Source: Podospora anserina
Lineage: Eukaryota
Reading direction: 5' to 3'
Length of the DNA stretch: 64,000 nucleotides
NCBI GenBank assembly: GCA_017654855.1
Contig: CM030333.1
Coordinates: 4,402,001 to 4,466,000 of the forward strand
Shown piece after piece: positions 8,081 through 62,007 of this stretch. The position numbers were made by a program, and so were the translations under genes. Position 1 is the stretch's first letter. Each line of letters starts with the position of its first letter. The notes under the pieces are model-generated. The model did not search any database and was not told the DNA's origin. It worked only from the letters and a program-made list of their open reading frames with translations.

Positions 8081-9082
8081 TGAACCGCAGCACTGAGCCG
8101 GTGGTCTACATGAGACAGCGCGTCATAATCTGCCAAAGGGTTTGCCATGTAGCGCATTGCTGGATGCAGTGTATATATCACAGCACAACTCATGTATATG
8201 TACCTTGTAATGAAGCATACATATCATTATGACCCAACTGACAACTCTGTCCATGATGGCCTAAAAAGAAGCAAAAGAAGACCACCCCTCCTGGGAGGAG
8301 GACCCAGCGCAACGGAATGAGAATCCACTATGTTAACCGATACACCAGAGGGGTCTGCTCTTCGGTCTGATATTGCTTGCCTGTTTGATGGAAGCTGCTG
8401 GCGGAAGACTATATCGTATTGGGCAGTGAGGTGGGCAGGCGGGTGGTGGCAGGAAGAAGTGCTTGTCTTGAGAAGGGACGTGGCGGTAGAGTCATCATGC
8501 CGCGTGACGTTGGGTGGGAGGAACTAGGAAAGGAAGGAAGGGGCGGGGAGAAGGCAGGAGGCAGGCGGGTTCTTGCCTCGCGGTTGTTAGGCAGGCAGGA
8601 ACAACGATGTGGACGGTCCCGTCTTTCCATATGGCAGGGTCAAGAGTTCTCGCGGCAAACATCCCATTGAAAAACAGATGTAGCTCTTTGAAATGGCCTG
8701 TTTATACATTGTAGTTTACATGTGTGGATCCTATACATTTAAAATTATATGTTCATACCACCCCCTGATTTCACACACAAGGGTAATCCAACTCCTCACA
8801 AGTAGAGTAATAGCTGAACCCCCCCCCACCCCCCCCCAGTTCCATGGATGAGCATTCCACCACGGGTACCACACCCGCGAGTCCATCGCCGAATCCCCCC
8901 AGTGCGGCCCAGAGGCAGCTGAGATGCCAGACTGAACCCGAGTGTATGGGCTGACTAAAGGGGTTGGACAGTCCCCGGTAACCAAACGGCTGATCGTTGA
9001 TGTGGGCCGGGCCTTTGATCTTGAGCTTTGTTGGTAAGAGGAAGAGGAGACCTGGGTTTGTACAGGATAGCTGCGCTTTGTG

Positions 9083-39221: not shown

Positions 39222-41352
39222 ATACCATGACTGTTTCACTCACTCTTCTTTCACTTGAGGTTTATACTGCAACAACTACCAAACTAATCATCACCATCAT
39301 ACATCGTCACATTTACTTTTTGGGCTTGTTGGTTATAGAGGGGGTATATTACCTCTGGGGATCTACAAAGAGTTTGTAAAAATACACGCGGCGTTTTTTC
39401 TAGGGGGGCTGGTTTTATATCCCATGGGATTGATTGGATTTGGCTGGGAACATTATGGCATTCATGGGGCCTTTTTTTTCTTCTTTTCTTTTCTACTCTG
39501 TGACATTATTTTTTCTTTTTCTTTGTTTTTTTTATGCTGTCGCCCTGGAAATTTGGGAGAATAAGGAATGGGAGGGCCTTAATGACTGCAATGAAATACC
39601 AAATGGGGGTTTTTTTGGGAGGGGAGAAGGGGAAGGAATGGGGCTATAAGGAACTCAAAAAAATTATTCTTATTATTACTACGAGACCAAAGTAAGAGTG
39701 GGAAGAGGAAGGGGGAGCAAACACTACCTACCCAGGGACTTGGGGAAATTTTCTTAGCTCTTGTTTAGTATTACTACTACAACAACAACGATACCCATAT
39801 TGTTCTCAACACCTTTTCTTGCGATTTGCTATTTGATGTTTGTGTGCAGAGGAACAAAGTTGGTTGCTTATATAGTAGTTATTGGTATGGTTTATTATTT
39901 ACTAATGGGCTCGCCGTCGCTCTTGTTAAGTTGTGGGATATGGAAGAGTGGTTTGTCTGAGTTTTTTCTTTCTTTAATCCTTTTTTTTTTTTGTTTTTTT
40001 GCGCCATTTAATAATGGCAATAATGATGAGATATTGATTGTGATTCGTGACATTGGTGACACAATCTCCCAACGGTATTGGCATATGATCTACAAAAAAA
40101 GGTTTAGGTTTCTGGGTCACTCACCCACCTAGTTTTGTGTGTGTGTTTTTACCTTTCTCATCCTTTCTGGGTGTGATTCATTATCTATCCATTATTGTTT
40201 TGTGTGGGTTTTTGTAGCAGGTTTGGGGGAAGGGGGGAACCGATTCGCTATGTTGAAAATGGGACCACCACAACCTCTCCACCCGCCCAGTCCTGACGCA
40301 GAGCACCACCGCCGCGTTTCTTTTTGCGGCTGGAGATGTCCCTGGCGCAGCAGGTTGTTGAAAAGACGGCGTTTTGGAAGCATGACTGGGGTAGAACAGG
40401 GAGGATGTCGGTTTATGGGACTGGTAACTCCCCTTGAGCTCACTTTTATTTGGTATTTGGGATGTCAAGGAGAGGTTGGAAGGGACGTATGTGAAGGGAC
40501 TGGTGAGGAACTGAGCGGTTTGGCCTGTTTTGCAGATGGTCAACTTTCGGTTTGTGAGGGCGGAAAAAAGGGTGGTGGTTGAGAATGGGGGGTTGGTGGG
40601 GTGGTGTTGTTTTTTGAGTTGGTTGAATACCCATGGTGCTGGGGAGGAGGCGAAATCATTTGGGGGTGATGGGTTAGCATGGTGTTGGACCTGTGAGTTG
40701 GATTGGAACTGGCATGAAACACTTCACACCGGAATTTCACAAAGAAAGTAGCAAAAAAGCAAAGACGTAGAGAAAAGCAGATCATGCTAAATCACACTGC
40801 TTGTTTTATTGATATAAAGTGTGAAGCTCTACTTTGAAACTGTTGCTATGTAGTGTGATTTGTGCACTAAAACACTTATCAAATTTCATCGTGTCACCGA
40901 TAAGCTCTATGCGATTGCACGCGGGTTTCGACGGCTCACGGCTCGCGCCGACACTGGGGTTGGCTGTCCACCCAAAACAAGAAAAATACCTCGAATGCAT
41001 AGAAACAGTGTTCTGTAGCCGTTTTTTTTGGGCTTCCAACGGACGTTCCGGCTGGTTGTGAGTGTCTGAGCAAGCTACCCCTCCATTGACTGGCGACGAC
41101 AGCGACCCCACGTCCAAAAACTCGCGATAAACAGATAAGCTAAGGTAGTTAGTTGGCCTGAGTGGGCTTCTGGGAGCTTCCTTTGGTGGGGTGATCAACA
41201 CCAAGAGTTGATATCATCACTGATTGTGAGCTTCACTTGCAGAGTCTCACAACTCCATCTCACTCACCTCATTTCCCAAGAAACACTCACCATTCTCACC
41301 CCTCCTCTCACCTCTCAATCTCACCTCCCAACATCCAAAGTAATAAAAAAAA

Positions 41353-44753: not shown

Positions 44754-47507
44754 ATGCGGCTCCAGTGGTACGCAACGGTAGGTTGAACCTCCAGCTCCAC
44801 GACGGGTTAAGGAGCTCTCGTGAACTGTGCATATCATCAACATACTGACTGATGCTGCCAACTACAGGCCTCCATGGCCTCTGCAGCCGCCGTGGTCGCA
44901 TCCGCTTTCTATCAACGTGCCAATTTCTACTCGGCCATGGTCCATCTTGCGCAAAGTAGCATGTCTCTCCTGGTACGTCCCTCTTGTGCCCACTTACACG
45001 CCTTGGGGCTCGTCTGACAGCAGGCCATTTAGGTTCTCGCAAATCTGGTGTTTGTTGTCTATGGATCTCTTGTGTATGGCTTCCAACGCCTCTGCTTCGG
45101 CCCCCTGCGACCGACCGAAATCGAACAACTCTACGAACGGGGCTGGTTCGCCGTCACCGAAACCTGCCTTGCCATGACCATATTCCGGGACGAACTCGGC
45201 CCCTCCTTTGTGATCATGTTTACCGCGCTCATCACTGGAAAGGTGTGGGGTTGGATCAGTGAAGGTCGCGTCGAAGTGCTGGAGCAACAACCCCCTGCGA
45301 ACCCCCGACTGTTCCATACCAGACTCAGCGTCTCTCTGCTGGTCAGTATTCTTTACGACGTCTTCTTGCTCAGCTATGCCGCCACTACCGTCTGGCAACA
45401 AGCCCGCCGTACCGTCATGGTCATGTTCCTATTCGAGTTTGCCGTCCTCACGGTCTGCTCCCTGCACACGACTGGTCGGTATATCCTCTCGCTGGTGGAG
45501 CAACAGGTCAACAGGATCCAATCACAACAACGCTTGGAAGAACGCCGTCGCCAGGTTCGAGAGCAGAGGGCCGAAATTCTGAGGCGGAGAGCTGAGGGTA
45601 CCGCTGAGGATGATGACGAGGAACTGCCCAACGAGGAAGATGTCGACGAGATGGACATTGAAGTGCCAGGTTGGGAATCCAAGGGGCACTGGATTTTGTC
45701 CCTGGATCTTTTTGCAGGTCAGTGCTTACGACAGCTGCCAAATGCTCTGCTCAACCGCTAACAGTTTACAGACTTTGTCAAGCTTACTCTGTATACCGTC
45801 TTCTTCTGCGCTCTTGTCATCTTTTTCAACTTCCCCATACATATCGTCAGAGACTGGTTCATGACCGCGAGGTCGTTCCTAAAGCGTCTACGAGCCCTCC
45901 TCCGCTATCGACAAGCGCTCAAACACATGGACCAGTACCCCGATGCTACAGTGGAGGATCTTGGCAGAGATGAAACCTGCATCATCTGCAGAGAAGAAAT
46001 GCGCCCTTGGGATCCCAACGATACCAACCAGATCGAGAGAACGCGCGCCAAGAAACTTCCATGTGGCCATATCCTGCATTTCGGTTGCCTCAAGAGTTGG
46101 TTGGAGCGTCAACAAGTATGCCCAACCTGCCGTCGTCCTGTCGCACGCGAAGGTCAACAACCTGCGAGGAACGGGGATGCCGTGGTGTTCAGGTTGGGGC
46201 TCGGTTTGCCTCCTGGCCCAAATCAGCCGGCGCAAGCACAGTTTCCACCAAATGGTCAGCCTCCTGCAGGTCAACCACCACAAGGGGGAGCGGCGGGACT
46301 TCAGGGGAACAACAGGAATCGCAACGTCCGGATGTTTAACTTTGGGCCTCTCAGACTTGGGTTTGCCCAGGGTGGCGTTGAGGAGATCAGAGAGATGGCT
46401 CAGAGAATGGGTATGCCGCCAGATGCTGCTCACCCTGCGCCTCCCGCACCCGCGGCTCCTGCACCGGCTGACAATGCCGCTGTCAACGTCAATACACCTG
46501 GTGCTGGGCTGGATCAAATCCGCGGACAGCTCACTGACCTTAGCACGCGAATCCAGCAAGAGATGGCCAACCTGAACCATGCCGCGCACGAGTTGTATCT
46601 TCTCCAGCACATGGTCAACGAACTGACACGGTTGCGCCAGACGCCTACACAACAAGCTGGTCAGCGACAAGGAATACCTCTTGTTCCAGGTCAAGTTGTT
46701 GTGCCTCCTCAGCCTGTGGCTAACATCCAGCATCTAGCTCAGGCACCTGCTCAGGCAGCTGTTCAACCAGGAGTTCAACCGGCAGGCCAACCTGCTACCC
46801 AGCCACCTGTCATGCTGCTAGGCCAACCTTATATTCAGGGACAGCCTCATCCTGCGCTTCATCATCCAGGGGTATTGCAAGCGCAGGTGCATGCATTTCT
46901 GCCGAGGGCCCAGCCTACTATTGGTAGGCCGGGTGCTGAATCAGGAGCGGCTATTCCTGCTGGAAGCCCAGATCTTCCCGAGGGTGTGACGATTCCGGCG
47001 GGCTGGTCACTTGTCCCTCTTCAAAGGGCGGAGAACGGGGTGGTAGAACCAAGTCCGCTCTGGGGCCAGCTGCCTGCGAACGCTCTTAGGGATAGGTTGC
47101 AGAACCTTGCTCCAGAGAGGCCAAGATCCTCCTTGTCCAGGGGCACGAGTCCTTTAGGCCGAGACACGACTTCGGTCGCTGGGTATGAGGCGGAATCATC
47201 GCAAACAGCTGAAGCACGTGGTGCTGTGCCATCAGTTGCTGCCTCAAATACACAACGAACTGTGTCTCCATCTCACACAGCATCAACAGCCACTTCAGCT
47301 GCTCCAAATTGGGGTGGTCCGGCGCAGCTCTTCGGCGGTCGAACTACCTCCCCTCCGCAAACCGAGGCTGAGGCAGGTAGGAGCAGAGCAGCTTCAGAAA
47401 GCAATGGGTCTGCCTGGCCAAGTGCACAGAACGGCAGTACCAATAATAGCAAGAGCACCGCCCGGCTGGCTTCGGTGGAGGACGCTGAGAATGAGGAGGA
47501 TGAATGA
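44754..47507 (+). CDS. hrd1: ERAD E3 ubiquitin ligase Hrd1 (RING-H2), 4 exons
   Basis: Exons 44754-44777, 44868-44972, 45033-45717 and 45772-47507. [58 protein letters not shown]...[28 protein letters not shown]. Confidence 0.95.
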
Positions 47508-48181
47508 AAAAAAAGACAGCCAGGTTACCAGTACAGGAGATACATACATCATCACAGGCCTTTTGAGGGCAGTTACAGCATTTTGGGGCGTTTAGCGGGT
47601 TGGGGATTTTCTCTACAGACTTGGTCGGTTTCTGTGGACGTTTCGATCCCGTCCACTTGATACTCAGCGCAAGAGCGGGCTTAGAAATACCAAATGCATT
47701 TCCATCTCAGCTGCTTCCTTCTCCGTTACTCTTGCTCTTTCGACTGTGTGCCCGCAAGAAAGTACCACCCTATCGACAAGATAAATGGCACTGTAAGTCG
47801 ACACATGTTTTATTCCGAACCATGCCTCGAGAAATGTTAATAAACCTCAAACGATAGTTAATAGATCTGAAATGAGGGTCAATCGGCCTATTTTCTTATT
47901 AAAAAAAGGAAGGTGTAAGTTGCCGTTATTTTATCCATGGTGTGTGGGTGGTGCTCACACAAGGCAGGCACATACGTGGGTCTGGCTGTTTAAGAAACCA
48001 CATGCCGGTTTTTTCTTCTTTTGGTTTTGTCTCAAGTTTGCATCATCCGACGACGATCGTCTCGTTATCCAGTTGTTTACTCTACTTTGTAGTGCTACCT
48101 ACTATCATTGCTTATCCTTCAAGGATTTTACATACACGCAGCTCAGCAACCATCTTTTCTGCTCCTTCTTCTCCAACACCC

Positions 48182-51100
48182 ATGGGGGACCATTCCGTGA
48201 GTCCTGAGGAGAGCGCCGAGAACAGCATACGGCCCGTCGATGATGATGTTCAGATTTTCCGGGGTGGTTGTCCCGATACAATTGCTGCCAACTGTGCATT
48301 TTCAGACGACGACGAGGAGGGCTTTTCTTGCGATGAAACGGCGGACGGATCACGGAATCTACCAAAAACACCTGCGGTCGAGCAAAGAGAACAGAAGGAG
48401 ATGGCCGGTTTGAACAAGACACCGGCCTTAACGTCCCAGTTTCAGCCAGCTCGAGCAGACCAGGGGGCCCTTCTCGCCCACGACAGGACGTTGGTGTACA
48501 ATCCTGCCTTGTATCATCATCACCAGCCCGGCCAAGTGCCAGGATACCATGCTCCTATGCCAGGATACTGCCCTCGTATTCCAGGATACCGAGCACCTCT
48601 GCCACAACTGTCTATGCCAGGACACTACGCTCCTATGCCAGGACACTGCCCTCATATCCTAGGATATTGCCCTCGTATGCCAGGATACCGAGCACCTCTG
48701 CCACAAGCACCTATGCCAGGATACCAAGCACCTTCGCCACAAGCACCCATGCCAGGATACTACGCTCCTATGTCAGGATACAGAGCACCTCTGCCAGGAT
48801 ACCAAGCAGCTCAGCCAGAAGACTACCGCGCCGTGCCGGACCGGGTGCTGGGCGAGCAGGCTGGTCTGCCAGGAGGAGATGGCAATCAAATGGATGTCGC
48901 TGCCGGCGCGACTCGGAATAACGGGTCAGATGCGCCGGTTCACGGCTTTTAGCAAATGCCGGGGTATGTTGCTCCTCGCAACCCTCACGGTCAACCGACG
49001 GGTGGGTTTGAGCCCAACTCGTCGTATCCAACCCCGCCGGTTACCGCCGCGGGCTCGCATCGATCCCACAGGTCTGTCGATTCGTTTGGCAGCTGGAGCG
49101 GCGGGCTGTATACAGCAGAGGACCATGAGGAGTTTTGTTCTGATGAGTATTTGACTAGGGAGTTTGAGATGAAGGGGGTGGAGGAAGGGAGCGATTTGTA
49201 TTGGAAAATGCGGAAAGACAGGGCGCAGGAGGCTGTTGATGTCATCTGCCGTTCGATTGAGAGAGGGAACAAGTTGGCGGCTGGGGATCCGACGCGGACG
49301 GCGCAGCCCATGACGACGGAGGGGGGGCTCTCTGGCGAAAGCTCTGTCGAGGGCTCTGTCGGGACTGAGTCTGGAAGGTCGTCGGAGTGTGATGTGAACA
49401 TGAGGGGAGGGGATTTCAAGTATCGCTACAAGGATCTTGTCGGAGACGGGCGGGGTAAGGAGAGGGTATGGAAATGGAGACGTCTTCATGTGGTTGATAC
49501 GGAGGAAGGTGTGGAGGGGCGGACTGGCGGGCGCCTTGATGCAAGCCATGGTGAAGCTTCGGTCTCAAAACGCCTATCAGTCTCGGCGGGGAAGGGGGTT
49601 GTGGAAGAAGAAGGTTTCGAGGTTATTTCTGCCATGGGTTCTGCTGCCACAAACGGGCGAGAGAGCAAAAAGTTTTCTCATCCTCTTTTCTTTGGCAGCA
49701 GTGAAAATTATCAACAGGGGCAGGATATAGACCTGGCCATCACCAGCTCCAATAAAGGCAACAAGAGAAAGCGGTTGAGGAGATTTTTTGCAGGTTTTCT
49801 TCCCCGGTCATCGACGAAATCTTCCTCTGCTGGCGCTCAAGGCAATCGGATATCCGACATGGAGAACAGACCGGATGAATCACGCCGCCGACTGTCATCA
49901 ACATGTCCTCCTATTCCGCCGGCTCGAGGTAGCAGCTCCCGCGCTGAGGGGAGTAAGACAAGTGTTTTGTCTCCTGGGGATAGGAGCCCCGCCGACAATG
50001 AAAACCAGGCACGGTCATCGACTGAAGATGCCTCCCAGACTAGCTCATGGTCTGCAGCTGGTGGCGATTCCGACATTGTCAAAACCAACACGAACACCAG
50101 CGACACCAGTGTGGCGGACACGAGTGATGATGATAATAATACTGCCGAGACCAACCCAGTCACAGCGAGTATGGATGACGACCACATCAATACCACCCTA
50201 GCCCAGACACTAGCTTCCAGCATGACCATTACCAAGGACGAAGCCCCGAGCAGCAACGAAGCCTCGAACAGCAACCAAACAGACACCACTACAGCCGAAC
50301 AAGAACAATCCGAAGAAGTCATCGACTACGCCTCCATGGTAGCCGAAGCAGGTGACTACTTTTTTGACCCGTTCGGCACCGAAAGCAGAGAAAAAGGCAA
50401 GGGAATAGACAGGAGCGTTACTCCCCCTTACCTCTACCACGACATGTACCATCTTTGTCCTCCTCTCGAGATCCCGGAGTGCCCGTACCCGCCACCAGAT
50501 AATGAGGACGGGACGCCGTGGTACGTAAGGTCCGAGAAGGATGAAGAAGAGCGTCGAGAACTTTGGAATAACCGCCCGCAGTGGGCGAGGGATATTGTGG
50601 AGCAGGTTAGAAGGGAGCGGGAGGAGGCGGATAGGTGGAGACACGAGCAGCGGGTTAGGGATAGGTTGCCGCCTTTGGATTTGAGAGGTCCGCCGCCTGT
50701 GCCGGAGAAGAGGAGGCATAGGGTTGGTCAGGGTGCTGCTGCGATGAGTAGTGAGGATTGGGGGTTTGCTGGGAGGGGTGGGGAGGGAGTTGGGACTAGG
50801 GGGATGGGGGTGCCGGATATCTTTGGGGGTGGCGGCGGTGGTGGTAGTGGTAGTGATAGGAGAACCACCACCTTTGTTGGAGGAGCAAGCGGGCGGGATA
50901 ATAGGTCGCTTTCTTATGCGGAGGTTATGATAAATGCCAGGAGAAATGAGGCTGCGCAGGCGGGGGCTGCTGCTGCTGTTGCTGCGATGCAGGGGAGGAA
51001 GAAGAGGAGGTTTTCGTTGACGGCGTTGCCAGAGATTCCGAGGGGGTTTGGAAGGTTGATGGGACGGGTTATTGGGCATAATGGGGGCCATGAGAACAGC

Positions 51101-51256
51101 GAGGTGGTGGAGGAGAAGGAGGAGGAAGAGGGGGTTGTTGAGGAAGAGGGGGTTGTTGAGGAAGAGGAGGATGTGGGACGGGGTGAGAGGGGAGTGAGGG
51201 GGAGTGAGGAGAGTGAGGATGGGATTTTCAGTCGGTCTGTGAGGCCCTGGGTTTAA
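48182..51256 (+). CDS. Orphan low-complexity protein of ~1024 codons interrupted by one in-frame TAG (48950-48952); candidate editing- or readthrough-dependent gene
   Basis: ORFs 47942..48952 and 48956..51256 share a frame and are separated only by TAG-CAA. First ATG with good context is 48182 (ACCCATGG). The MPGY repeat motif occurs on both sides of the stop. Confidence 0.7.
48536..48810 (+). repeat. Coding minisatellite of 21-bp/36-bp units (CCAGGATAC core) encoding (M/V/I/L)PGY(H/C/R/Q/Y)(AP/PR) repeats
   Basis: About 11 imperfect units: VPGYHAP MPGYCPR IPGYRAPLPQLS MPGHYAP MPGHCPH ILGYCPR MPGYRAPLPQAP MPGYQAPSPQAP MPGYYAP MSGYRAP LPGYQAA. Confidence 0.9.
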
Positions 51257-51632
51257 AGGGGGATGCTGGATCGGTTTTTGGATGATGGTTTTTACAAAGG
51301 TGGGGTGTCAGATTGTGAAGGGGATGTTTTGTGATTGGGTGAGTTTTTTATCGTTCTTTTGTTGTGGTTTATGGACGAGTTATGGTTGAATACCTACCAT
51401 GGTTGTGTGGATGGGTAACTCTCAGCGAAGGACACGCTTTGCATGTATTTGAGAAATTGTTAGCCAGAAGGAATACAGCGGAATATAATGTTTAAAACGC
51501 CTCCATGATTACCGGAGTTATGATGCCGATCAGAATCATCGCCTATAATGTGGATATAAAAACACCGCTTTCAACCTAAAAACTATTATACATCATCATC
51601 CAGGGATACTGCAGACTGTGTATAACAATCTC

Positions 51633-54266
51633 TCAAAGCGGCTGCAAATCCTCCCTGCATATGGGACAAACCAGCCGCTTCCTAAACCACTGCTCCAAGC
51701 ACTTTGTGTGAAACATGTGCCGGCAGGGCGTGATCATGTACGACTTCCTCTCCAGCATGTCAGCCATGCTCCACGACGGGTCCGGCTTGCCCGTCATCAC
51801 GACCGGCACCAGCATCTCCTCCCTGCAGATGGCGCAGTCCACATTCCTCAGCGTCATGCCCCTCTGCCTCAGCTCCTTTGCCCTCTCCCTCAGCTGCCCC
51901 CTGTGGTCGTGGCCGTGGCCTTCGGCGGTCGACGACGACGACGACGACGACGAAGCAGACTCGAGAAATTCAAGACCGACGACAACCCCGCTCTCGATGT
52001 CATCCTGCCTCAGGATGCGGTGGTAGTCCCACACTTCTGGCATCCAACCTCTCGGAAACGGGATGCCCAGCCGGGGCTCCCAAAAGTTTTGCAGGATCAG
52101 CGTCAGGAGCTGGGCCCACACCCAGGCGACGAGGATGGAGAAGGTTGTGTAATCGGTCGAGACGAACAAGAAATTTTTGTCGTAGAGGTAAAAGTACGCA
52201 AACGGGGCGAGGCGGCAGAGGGATTGGCCTGTCAGAAAGTTCCAGGAGAAGCTGCGGCGGCTGTTGCGGCGGGCGTTTCGCCAGATTTGGGGGAGCCAGA
52301 GGGAGAAGTAGAGGAAGGAGATGGTGTTGATGTAGATTGAGCGGGCGCGGGGGGGCCAGGAGAGGGAGAGGATTGTTAGGACCATGATGGCGAGGATGAG
52401 GAGGAAGAAGTAGAAGATTACGGGGGCGAATTGGGCTGTTTGGGGGCGGTTGGTTGGTGTGGTTGTCGTTGCTGGGGCTGTGGTGGTGGTGCCTAGGCCT
52501 GGGACGGCGCCTGCGCCGGCTGCGACGTTTTCTGCAATCTCGGCGTCGATGTCTTGGTCTGAAGGGATAATGATCGGGGGAGAGGGTGCCCTGGGAGGTC
52601 CAGCTGTTACTGGCGGGGGCAGAGTGCCTGAGGTCTGTGGGACTGCCGGAGCAGGAGGTGGTGCTGGGGCGGTAGTGGTTGTGTTCGTAGTACCCGTGTT
52701 GGTGGCTGGAGGAGTATCGCGAGCTCTCCTCTCTGGTTCACTGCCACGGATGCTGGCCAAGAGTCCAGCTCCGATAGCCGATGACATGAACGAGACAAAT
52801 GTTAACAGCAAGGCAGAGTGAAACCCGTCAGATGCACTGACAGACCAAGCAGATGAAGCTGAGAAAACCAGGCCATCTGCCAGCAACATCATTGACATGC
52901 TCCAAAAGCTCAACCGATTGAGCGTAGAGGGCGTGGGGGATTCTTTGATCTGCCCTTTCAAGAGTATGACTTGTACTGCGTATACAAACGCGAAAACTAG
53001 CAGCGAGTAGTTCACCCGAGAAAGAAGCACCTCCTCCTTGACACCAACAAGATGCTGGCCATCTGCGGGTGGGAATAAGGGAGGTCCCTTAGACTCGAGA
53101 TAATATGAGCAGTCAGGCGACCAGGCGACGAGGGACATTTGCAGCTCAGGTAGCTTCGTGTTTCGAGCGCCAGTAGGATAGCGAAGCTCCCGCTCCAGAT
53201 CGTCGATAATGGAACGCGACGAATCCATGAATCCCTTGTCATGTGTATAGTGATGGTCCAGGGCATGCAGTTGCAGATACAAAATGTATTCACAACGGGG
53301 TAGTGTGCCACCAAAGTCCCCTTCAATGACCGGATTCCATGGGTTGGATATATCTGGAAGCCTGCTACGTTCTCTCTCTCGCAGCGTTTCATCGACAGTG
53401 TGGTTCAACAGACGTTGACTCGTCTCGAAAAACTTGGCGTGAGGCGTGAGGTGAGGCAAGCCAAAGATGCCCGCGAATTTCTCACTAGTTGTAGTCAGAA
53501 TCATCGACCCTTGCAATGGCCAGTGAACACCGTAAAGTTGCATAACGAAACTGGCAGCAGAGGTCTCTTCATCCTGAAAAGTTGCCACAGCTGAGATCTC
53601 CCTCGCAACACCCGCCGTATGGCTCTCTTTCTCATCTTTTGGAGTCTCCCGATAGCAGCTATCTGGTGTGTCATCCTCCTCAAGGCGTAGGACAACAGTG
53701 CCGTGAGACCCAGTGACATTCCAGCCCCAGTCGACATCGTCCACCATCCAATTGACCCCAGGAGCAACGGCAGTGAGGTTGAAGTTATCTCTGTACTTCG
53801 CAGCCGACCCCTGACGACGGATCCACTTCCCCTGGACAGTGCCCGTCGCATTCTGCCATGTCCTCTTCGCCGAACCATGAGCCCACTCGTCCCCTCCTTC
53901 CTGCGGTGGGTAGGCATGTTTGCTCCACTGACGACACCGATCCTTGAAATAATCAAGATCCTCCCATGCGAGACCGTCACTTTCCCGAAACCCGGTGAGA
54001 TTGAGATACTTGGGCTCTTGCCATGGCGGCGCCCCTTCCTTGTGTGCGTGGGGAGAAAAGTCGCCCCAGTTGGTGCTGTTGAGAATGCCGTGAGCAGCCC
54101 TCTGGCGGCCAAGCCTTTCTGAGGCGGTGAGATATGGTGTTGATATCAGTGCTGGTGCATCGCTCTCAGAGAAGAATGTGAGATAAAAGATGAGCACCAA
54201 GAGGAGCATCTGCCCCCGGTCACTCTGCTGCCGTCGCTGTTGTTCATCCTGTTCTTGTTCAGGCAT
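51633..54266 (-). CDS. tul1: Golgi transmembrane E3 ubiquitin ligase Tul1/Dsc1 (RING-H2), 877 aa
   Basis: LTTTSEKFAGIFGLPHL, CEYILYLQ, multi-TM region with SLWLPQIWRN and GQSLCRLAPFAYF; C-terminal CAICREEM...YMITPCRHMFHTKCLEQW...CPICR. Confidence 0.93.
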   Translation of the reverse strand: MPEQEQDEQQRRQQSDRGQMLLLVLIFYLTFFSESDAPALISTPYLTASERLGRQRAAHGILNSTNWGDFSPHAHKEGAPPWQEPKYLNLTGFRESDGLAWEDLDYFKDRCRQWSKHAYPPQEGGDEWAHGSAKRTWQNATGTVQGKWIRRQGSAAKYRDNFNLTAVAPGVNWMVDDVDWGWNVTGSHGTVVLRLEEDDTPDSCYRETPKDEKESHTAGVAREISAVATFQDEETSAASFVMQLYGVHWPLQGSMILTTTSEKFAGIFGLPHLTPHAKFFETSQRLLNHTVDETLRERERSRLPDISNPWNPVIEGDFGGTLPRCEYILYLQLHALDHHYTHDKGFMDSSRSIIDDLERELRYPTGARNTKLPELQMSLVAWSPDCSYYLESKGPPLFPPADGQHLVGVKEEVLLSRVNYSLLVFAFVYAVQVILLKGQIKESPTPSTLNRLSFWSMSMMLLADGLVFSASSAWSVSASDGFHSALLLTFVSFMSSAIGAGLLASIRGSEPERRARDTPPATNTGTTNTTTTAPAPPPAPAVPQTSGTLPPPVTAGPPRAPSPPIIIPSDQDIDAEIAENVAAGAGAVPGLGTTTTAPATTTTPTNRPQTAQFAPVIFYFFLLILAIMVLTILSLSWPPRARSIYINTISFLYFSLWLPQIWRNARRNSRRSFSWNFLTGQSLCRLAPFAYFYLYDKNFLFVSTDYTTFSILVAWVWAQLLTLILQNFWEPRLGIPFPRGWMPEVWDYHRILRQDDIESGVVVGLEFLESASSSSSSSSTAEGHGHDHRGQLRERAKELRQRGMTLRNVDCAICREEMLVPVVMTGKPDPSWSMADMLERKSYMITPCRHMFHTKCLEQWFRKRLVCPICREDLQPL

Positions 54267-60850: not shown

Positions 60851-60922
60851 TCCGGTATAGTGTAACGGTTAACATATCGCGTTTTCACCGCGAAGCTCGG
60901 GGTTCGATTCCCCGTACCGGAG
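60851..60922 (+). tRNA. tRNA-Glu (TTC), intronless
   Basis: Acceptor TCCGGTA/TACCGGA, D-arm GTGT/ACAT, anticodon arm TCGCG-TTTTCAC-CGCGA, T-arm CGGGG-TTCGATT-CCCCG. Confidence 0.95.
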
Positions 60923-61921: not shown

Positions 61922-62007
61922 GGTCCGCTGGCGTAATGGCAGCGCGTCTGACTACGATTTCATATTAATCCATCAGGAGGTTCCAGGTTCGACCCCTGGG
62001 CGGATCG
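61922..62007 (+). tRNA. tRNA-Arg (ACG) with 14-nt intron (61958-61971)
   Basis: Acceptor GGTCCGC/GCGGATC, anticodon arm TCTGA-CTACGA[intron]A-TCAGG, T-arm CCAGG-TTCGACC-CCTGG; T6 terminator 62008-62013. Confidence 0.95.

Follow-up and report, generated by a model that had tools for sequence, protein, structure and literature searches.

A reading frame split by a single conserved TAG in Podospora anserina: a candidate for restorative A-to-I mRNA editing

In the 64,000-nt stretch of the Podospora anserina genome analysed here (assembly GCA_017654855.1, contig CM030333.1, positions 4,402,001 to 4,466,000 of the forward strand; hereafter the window, with position 1 as its first nucleotide), two long open reading frames (ORFs) on the + strand lie in the same frame and are separated by one TAG at 48950-48952 (+). 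This arrangement raises the question whether the locus encodes two proteins, a broken one, or a single protein for which the stop codon has to be recoded in the mRNA. The answer favoured here, to which we assign a probability of about 0.5, is that the TAG may be a target of sexual-stage adenosine-to-inosine (A-to-I) premature-stop correction (PSC), i.e., a site of a known kind, with A48951 as the candidate edited base. P. anserina has long served as a genetic model in work on sexual development, ageing and meiotic drive, and a conserved gene split by a single UAG, with its two halves apparently maintained, represents a tractable test case for restorative editing in Podospora. Such a gene could show whether the unedited short product functions, which is an open point in the debate on adaptive versus harm-permitting editing (PMC10776026, PMC13431901).

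If the stop is corrected in this way, the ancestral coding sequence would have extended from ATG 48182 to 51256 (approximately 1024 codons), and the UAG, at codon 257, would have been fixed before the species of the P. anserina complex split. In vegetative mRNA, the ribosome would halt at the UAG and yield at most a 256-aa PGY-repeat protein. During sexual development, Tad2/Tad3 (ADAT2/3) would deaminate A48951, the resulting UIG would be read as Trp, and the full disordered protein (HGF-W-QMPGY...) would be made. The points for editing are a single conserved stop, a transcript that runs unspliced over the TAG, an open downstream ORF, coding-like codon usage upstream, repeats that span the stop and the context of the site. 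The editing event, its stage specificity and the function of either protein form are what we infer; judged by its sequence, the locus itself is one gene, the counterpart of the models numbered ..._211960 in the sister species.

The split reading frame and its transcript

The layout, one frame split by a single TAG, is real and non-random. Translation of 48182-51256 (1025 positions) gave one internal stop, and the first-pass annotation was correct in describing a 256-codon and a 766-codon ORF in one frame with only the TAG between them, as well as in its reading of the junction (...HGF*QMPGYVAP) and of MPGY as a motif repeated upstream. A total of 349 codons are open ahead of the TAG, the preceding in-frame stop being TAA 47900. 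Of the 4064 intervals between successive stops in the window, all six frames taken together, only 23 are 256 codons or longer, and at least 120 open codons on each side of one stop were found at only 4 places. The other large single-stop case is TAA 45759 (+), with 242 open codons before and 581 after it, in the RING-H2 (Hrd1-like) neighbour gene. The context of this TAA, aaccgCTAACAG, resembles an intron branch site followed by an acceptor (CTAAC..AG), and it probably represents an in-frame intron rather than a recoded stop. Further single TAGs were found at 40130 (+) and 56674 (-), each flanked on both sides by 124-149 open codons.

The upstream ORF (256 codons, 48182-48949, +) encodes an acidic N-terminal part, then MPGY.AP repeats and a linker that ends in ...APVHGF; no Pfam family matched it. 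The repeats correspond to a tandem array detected by Tandem Repeats Finder at 48537-48807 (+), with a period of 21/36 nt, which encodes (M/I)PGY.AP(LPQAP). MPGYVAP, the first 7 residues of the downstream ORF after the stop, is one further unit of this repeat, and the array thus spans the TAG. When codon usage was scored against that of the window's other long ORFs, the parts of the upstream ORF outside the repeats scored best in the ORF frame (+0.136 and +0.15 bits/codon, other frames -0.14 to -0.57), and the downstream ORF scored +0.163. The combination of 349 open codons, coding-type codon usage and a repeat unit crossing the stop indicates that the ancestral frame spanned the TAG. A more distal start at ATG 48002, which would give a hydrophobic N-terminus, was rejected; the 180 nt that precede ATG 48182 (48002-48181) are not coding-like by the codon score, which is not best in this frame, and GC at the three codon positions is 0.37/0.55/0.35. 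An internal duplication linking the upstream ORF to the downstream one was also rejected, as the MPGY.AP unit alone matches (8/19 identities, E = 0.19).

The transcript over this region was assessed with contigs from four runs that were aligned on 47600-51700; the identity of these runs as RNA rests on spliced joints. One joint (47792>47858), found in contigs of all four runs, removes a 65-nt GT..AG intron at 47793-47857 (+), and a second (47914>47968), found in contigs of three of the four, removes a 53-nt GTAAGT..AG intron at 47915-47967 (+). Either the split gene has these two introns in its 5' leader, or they belong to the 3' untranslated region of the RING gene upstream. Between them lies a 57-nt exon with ATG 47872, which opens an upstream ORF of approximately 22 codons after splicing. 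In the runs X15, X16 and X17, which come from three studies, the contigs bearing both joints are colinear with the window from 47968 to 50758, 50703 and 49426, respectively, and no joint was found between 47968 and 50703 in the RNA contigs; the fourth run, X20, does not cover the TAG. The DNA-encoded TAG is therefore present in RNA contigs, and an intron with TTTTAG as acceptor, which the first-pass annotation had named among the results that would refute it, is excluded by the colinear spliced contigs. No letter differed from the window anywhere on this stretch in the X15, X16 and X17 contigs, the sole difference being a deletion of 3 nt at 48513, in frame, in all three. This deletion falls in a CAT/CAC run at 48511-48519 (+) with a 3-nt length polymorphism, which reads HHH in the window and HH in the RNA contigs and in several ORF calls, among them P0011, P0013 and P0015.

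A first alternative to editing is that the locus gives two products and that no recoding takes place. The 766-aa protein would start at its own AUG 48956, through a shorter transcript beginning closely upstream of it, leaky scanning or termination-reinitiation, the AUG being separated from the TAG by 3 nt; the upstream ORF would then encode a 256-aa PGY-repeat protein of its own or be what is left of an N-terminal extension since lost. This would account for an open downstream ORF even though no edited RNA was seen, and for the lack of an upstream homologue outside the complex. The RNA contigs, however, continue over both ORFs, and 18 ATGs lie in 48182-48955, the last of which (48930) is out of frame and opens an overlapping ORF that runs to 49154. 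AUG 48956 is thus out of reach for a ribosome that scans the long transcript, and independent initiation would need a dedicated start site within 25 nt of this AUG. Translation of the downstream ORF could consequently proceed by editing of the UAG, by readthrough of the UAG or from such a start within approximately 25 nt of the AUG. If the Met at 48956 were the ancestral start, approximately 156 upstream codons that are open, in frame, coding-like and outside the repeats would, in addition, be very hard to explain. On balance we regard independent initiation as rather unlikely.

Conservation of the stop and selection on the two halves

The downstream ORF (766 codons, 48956-51256, +), which starts at ATG 48956 and whose TAA ends at 51256, encodes a protein that is predicted to be disordered and is conserved in Podosporaceae. 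The closest protein is QC762_211960 of Podospora pseudocomata (760 aa, 97% identity), and counterparts were found in P. pseudoanserina, P. pseudopauciseta, P. comata and P. bellae-mahoneyi; these models are all numbered ..._211960, so that synteny of the split gene in the sister species is apparent from gene number. As the closest matches all come from the Podospora anserina species complex, the window itself is assigned to that complex. When 1.84 billion representatives were searched exhaustively with HMMER, 10 proteins passed E <= 0.001. Real relatives among them were limited to Cercophora samala (720 aa, 56%), Triangularia setosa (757 aa, 42%) and T. verruculosa (694 aa, 39%), and the remaining matches are the Podospora upstream-ORF cluster, three fragments of 71-116 aa from one contig and three low-complexity hits. 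A profile search returned 4 clusters and no additional relatives, a scan of metagenomes with the family alignment matched the pattern 96 times but yielded 0 relatives, and searching metagenome contigs for exact 20-mers gave 0 matches.

The gene had initially been called an orphan, which is approximately correct; a Pfam domain is lacking, and relatives are limited to Podospora, Triangularia and Cercophora. No Pfam family was found at E <= 1 for the proteins P0002 and P0003, and the read-through protein gave CaiF_GrlA alone, at E = 0.3, below the cut-off of that family. UniRef names four of the sister-species proteins (P0002, P0007, P0008 and P0009) "Rrn9 domain-containing protein". An Rrn9 identity is not supported, as no Pfam Rrn9 match was found at E <= 1, and the label is an apparently unsupported automatic transfer. 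The Atlas model shows disorder (mean pLDDT 0.39, pTM 0.19), and the Protein Atlas gave no look-alikes at 0.9 or above by features and none with a structural TM above 0.17. Because of its mean pLDDT of 0.39 and its lack of a Pfam domain, the protein fits the type of gene in which premature-stop correction is known; the 71 PSC pseudogenes of Fusarium graminearum include 50 with disordered regions and 43 that encode hypothetical proteins (PMC10776026). Conserved blocks in the family alignment, i.e., IDYASM..EAGDYF, PPARGSSS, NTSDTS, GPPPVPE.RRH, VPDIFG, LSYAE and GRL.GRV.GH, show that the downstream ORF encodes a real, though fast-evolving, protein.

Two observations stand apart from the full-length relatives. 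The P. bellae-mahoneyi protein (P0006, 459 aa) has its first residue at position 302 of the downstream ORF, and the three short fragments (P0019-P0021, 71-116 aa) lie on one 12-kb contig of a more distant relative with 69-80% identity. These could be decayed copies, or they could be artefacts of annotation or assembly.

A sequencing error at the TAG, or a stop private to one strain, is excluded by data from runs, contigs and sister sequences. Fourteen further runs from 4 studies contain all sampled words, and the ORF calls ending in ...HGF (cluster 2) derive from 20 contigs. The search with the upstream ORF gave two clusters with six distinct sequences in three lineages, i.e., the window's own species (HHH/HH and one R/Q variant), a 342-aa form and a 309-aa comata-like form. 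Variants were sought among proteins of 140-448 aa, a range that may not capture a lineage whose upstream ORF is broken into fragments. Aligned end to end, all six variants stop directly after HGF, and MPGYVAP is the start of all four full-length annotated sister models and of one ORF call of 757 aa. As the stop is common to all variants, it predates the radiation of the complex. If the gene is read through this stop, the four sister models that start at the first Met after it would represent an annotation error, probably a systematic one.

A second alternative is that the locus is a young unitary pseudogene, in which a nonsense mutation was fixed in the ancestor of the complex and both halves have been decaying and have not yet been hit again. 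The complex is young and constraint is weak, with amino-acid divergence of up to 7.6% downstream and approximately 6% upstream; the shortened model in P. bellae-mahoneyi and the three ORF fragments of the more distant relative would fit decay, and no recoded RNA or protein was seen in the contigs or protein collections. This explanation is open to a test with the substitutions in the downstream ORF. Seven sequences aligned over 766 columns vary in 91 of them, with at least 94 changes. The window was excluded from the count, as it had been picked for its openness, which left at least 89 missense changes in six sequences. With a nonsense-to-missense ratio under random mutation of 0.043-0.056, derived from the codons of the window, 3.8-5.0 nonsense changes are expected under neutrality and 0 were seen (P(0) = 0.007-0.022), suggesting that the downstream ORF has been under selection to stay open. 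No frameshift was found in the 5 full-length sister sequences, and the two indels (6 and 3 codons) are both in frame. From this pattern of substitution we conclude that the downstream ORF is translated in the living species. Three indels of the upstream ORF (including differences of 33 and 5 codons among lineages) are also in frame; they lie inside the repeats, where the mechanism of length change may by itself keep the frame. Together with continued transcription and with 349 and 767 codons that have stayed open on the two sides of the stop, the lack of nonsense and frameshift changes makes a pseudogene improbable.

Context of A48951 and the weight of the evidence for editing

The base proposed as the edited one, A48951, is preceded by U at both -1 and -2 and followed by G (+1), C (+2) and A (+3), as the first-pass annotation had read. 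Fungal editing sites have U at -1 in more than 70% of cases, A or G at +1 and +3 and a preference for hairpin loops, like tRNA A34 (PMC11156358), and the sequence immediately around A48951 agrees with these published preferences. Editing of mRNA by Tad2/Tad3 in the sexual stage has been reported for Neurospora and Sordaria, which belong to the same order (PMC11156358), and ADAT-type genes of P. anserina are differentially expressed during sexual development (bioRxiv 10.1101/2024.12.09.627484).

The structure around the site is less clear. A hairpin had been proposed in which seven pairs enclose a 4-nt loop. The complementarity of CGGC (48943-46) and GCCG (48958-61) was borne out, but the 7-pair form is predicted at -3.7 kcal/mol, as compared to -4.6 kcal/mol for a 4-bp stem with an 11-nt loop. 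A possible stem-loop at 48943-48961 (+) would have the 7-nt loop UUAGCAA with A48951 as its third base, the position of A34 in a tRNA. Its stem consists of a U-A closing pair, a U.U mismatch and then C-G, G-C, G-C and C-G, so that 5 of the 6 flanking positions are paired and 4 of these pairs are G:C. This anticodon-arm-like geometry (at least 5/6 pairs, at least 4 G:C) is found at 3 of the 867 TAGs of the window, including this one, and at least 5/6 pairs of any kind at 30 of 867. In minimum-free-energy folds, 77 of 400 sampled TAGs fall in hairpin loops anyway. Over 24 folding contexts, the mean probability that A48951 is unpaired is 0.58.

The nucleotides that follow the UAG bear on a third alternative, constitutive readthrough, in which a small fraction of full-length protein would be made in all tissues and in which the RNA would not be edited. 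A C at +4 promotes readthrough in eukaryotes, as does CAR at +4 to +6, and readthrough would keep both ORFs under selection with the RNA unchanged. UAG-CAA had been described as a leaky stop context. CAA does fit CAR, but the motif of the tobacco mosaic type is UAG-CAR-YYA, and the hexanucleotide after the UAG here is CAA-AUG, in which AUG does not fit YYA. Readthrough with a partial context usually amounts to a few per cent or less. Constitutive readthrough would also leave the anticodon-arm-like complementarity unexplained, and we consider it improbable, about as much so as decay of the gene.

Several results weigh against editing of A48951. With regard to the RNA, 48951 is A in the X15, X16 and X17 contigs, in which a consensus drops minority variants and for which the tissue is unspecified, and the literature searched, with supplementary tables outside its scope, contained no catalogue of A-to-I editing for P. 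anserina. With regard to structure, the register of the stem-loop was picked after the site was known, the 60-nt fold has a z of -1.46 with A48951 paired, and the probability of the stem over the 24 folding contexts ranges from 0 to 0.97, with a mean of 0.29. With regard to the protein, a fused ORF of approximately 1020-1100 aa was absent from the proteins searched, which included ORF calls on assembled RNA runs, and the protein collections searched held no fused protein above 760 aa. The HMMER search detected no homologue of the upstream part outside the Podospora complex (P0005 and three low-complexity hits only), a relative with an uninterrupted long ORF was not found, and none of the three orthologues from outside Podospora covers the upstream part, as judged from gene models. 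The stop position in the sister species was read from proteins, in which TAG, TAA and TGA are not distinguishable. The tests for selection also have limits. One lesion hidden in the 459-aa P. bellae-mahoneyi model would weaken the downstream test to P(<=1) = 0.04-0.11, and the 21 missense changes of the upstream ORF correspond to approximately 1.2 expected nonsense changes, which leaves the test of that half with no power.

Finally, the T. setosa model starts with MPGYQPRPQ and the C. samala model with MP-VGP, both at the Met homologous to the one at 48956, which counts against editing and suggests a functional protein from that Met, in favour of independent initiation. This Met could be the ancestral start. 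Annotation pipelines never read through stops, however, and an unrecognised conserved stop gives identical models; since models begin after a stop regardless, the starts in T. setosa and C. samala are equally expected if the stop is conserved family-wide. A broader form of the editing explanation can be formulated, in which the TAG would be no recent lesion but a switch kept on purpose throughout the family and older than the divergence of Podospora, Triangularia and Cercophora, and in which F-stop-Q-M-P-G would mimic the anticodon arm of tRNA-Ala(AGC) and be read as such by Tad2/Tad3 in the sexual stage; the UAGC of the site matches U33-A34-G35-C36 of this tRNA. We consider this broader form distinctly unlikely. 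If it were true, the mycelium would make a short PGY-repeat protein and fruiting bodies a long disordered protein of a nuclear type, a tRNA-like editing signal, conserved in the RNA, would define the boundary between the isoforms, and three genera would have been annotated from the same Met-Pro because of an anticodon-arm mimic.

Neighbouring genes and comparison with known systems

The split gene is flanked by two genes for RING E3 ligases. The upstream RING gene has its stop at 47507, and the downstream neighbour (51633-54266, -) encodes an 877-aa transmembrane RING E3 ligase with DUF2921 and RING-H2, which is Dsc1/Tul1-like. The window also contains two tRNA-Glu genes (8283-8354, -, and 60851-60922, +) and an intron-containing tRNA-Arg(ACG) gene (61922-62007, +), whose product is a natural A34 substrate of Tad2/Tad3; ARAGORN misreads its anticodon as "acga".

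Among known systems, readthrough of the tobacco mosaic virus type shares with this locus a UAG followed by CAA and differs from it in that AUG takes the place of YYA. We know of no fungal cellular readthrough example with the UAG-CAA-AUG context. The anticodon arms of A34-containing tRNAs, the substrates of Tad2/Tad3, resemble the site in their register (Y32-U33-A34-N-N-A37), G:C-rich stem and 7-nt loop; the loop of tRNA-Arg(ACG) reads C-U-A-C-G-A, as compared to U-U-A-G-C-A at the site. Unlike a tRNA arm, the mRNA stem has a U.U mismatch beside the closing pair and no tRNA body, and its fold is not robustly predicted.

A closer parallel in the same order, Sordariales, is Neurospora rfk-1, which has an early UAG and in which unedited mRNA gives a short protein and mRNA edited in the sexual stage a long one (RFK-1A/RFK-1B; bioRxiv 10.1101/2020.12.30.424869). 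An early UAG and two isoforms gated by editing, as found in rfk-1 and in Fusarium verticillioides Skc1, are what is proposed here for the Podospora gene. Those two genes, however, encode small spore-killer poisons in drive elements, and a drive element is not suggested here, where the gene lies between the two RING ligase genes and keeps its gene number in the sister species; the extension is 767 codons in Podospora and 28 in those genes.

The PSC genes of F. graminearum (PUK1, AMD1 and PSC01-71; Qi et al. 2024, PMC10776026; PMC11156358) differ in that their editing has been measured, whereas the Podospora gene is known from sequence and contigs. Intact orthologues reveal the ancestral codon in F. 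graminearum, which belongs to a different order, while the upstream part of the Podospora gene is confined to one species complex. In other respects the Podospora gene is like these PSC genes, with an in-frame UAG in the N-terminal part of an ORF that is otherwise intact and is transcribed, a U at -1, purines at both +1 and +3, a stop that has been kept among relatives, and a disordered, domain-less "hypothetical" protein as its predicted product.

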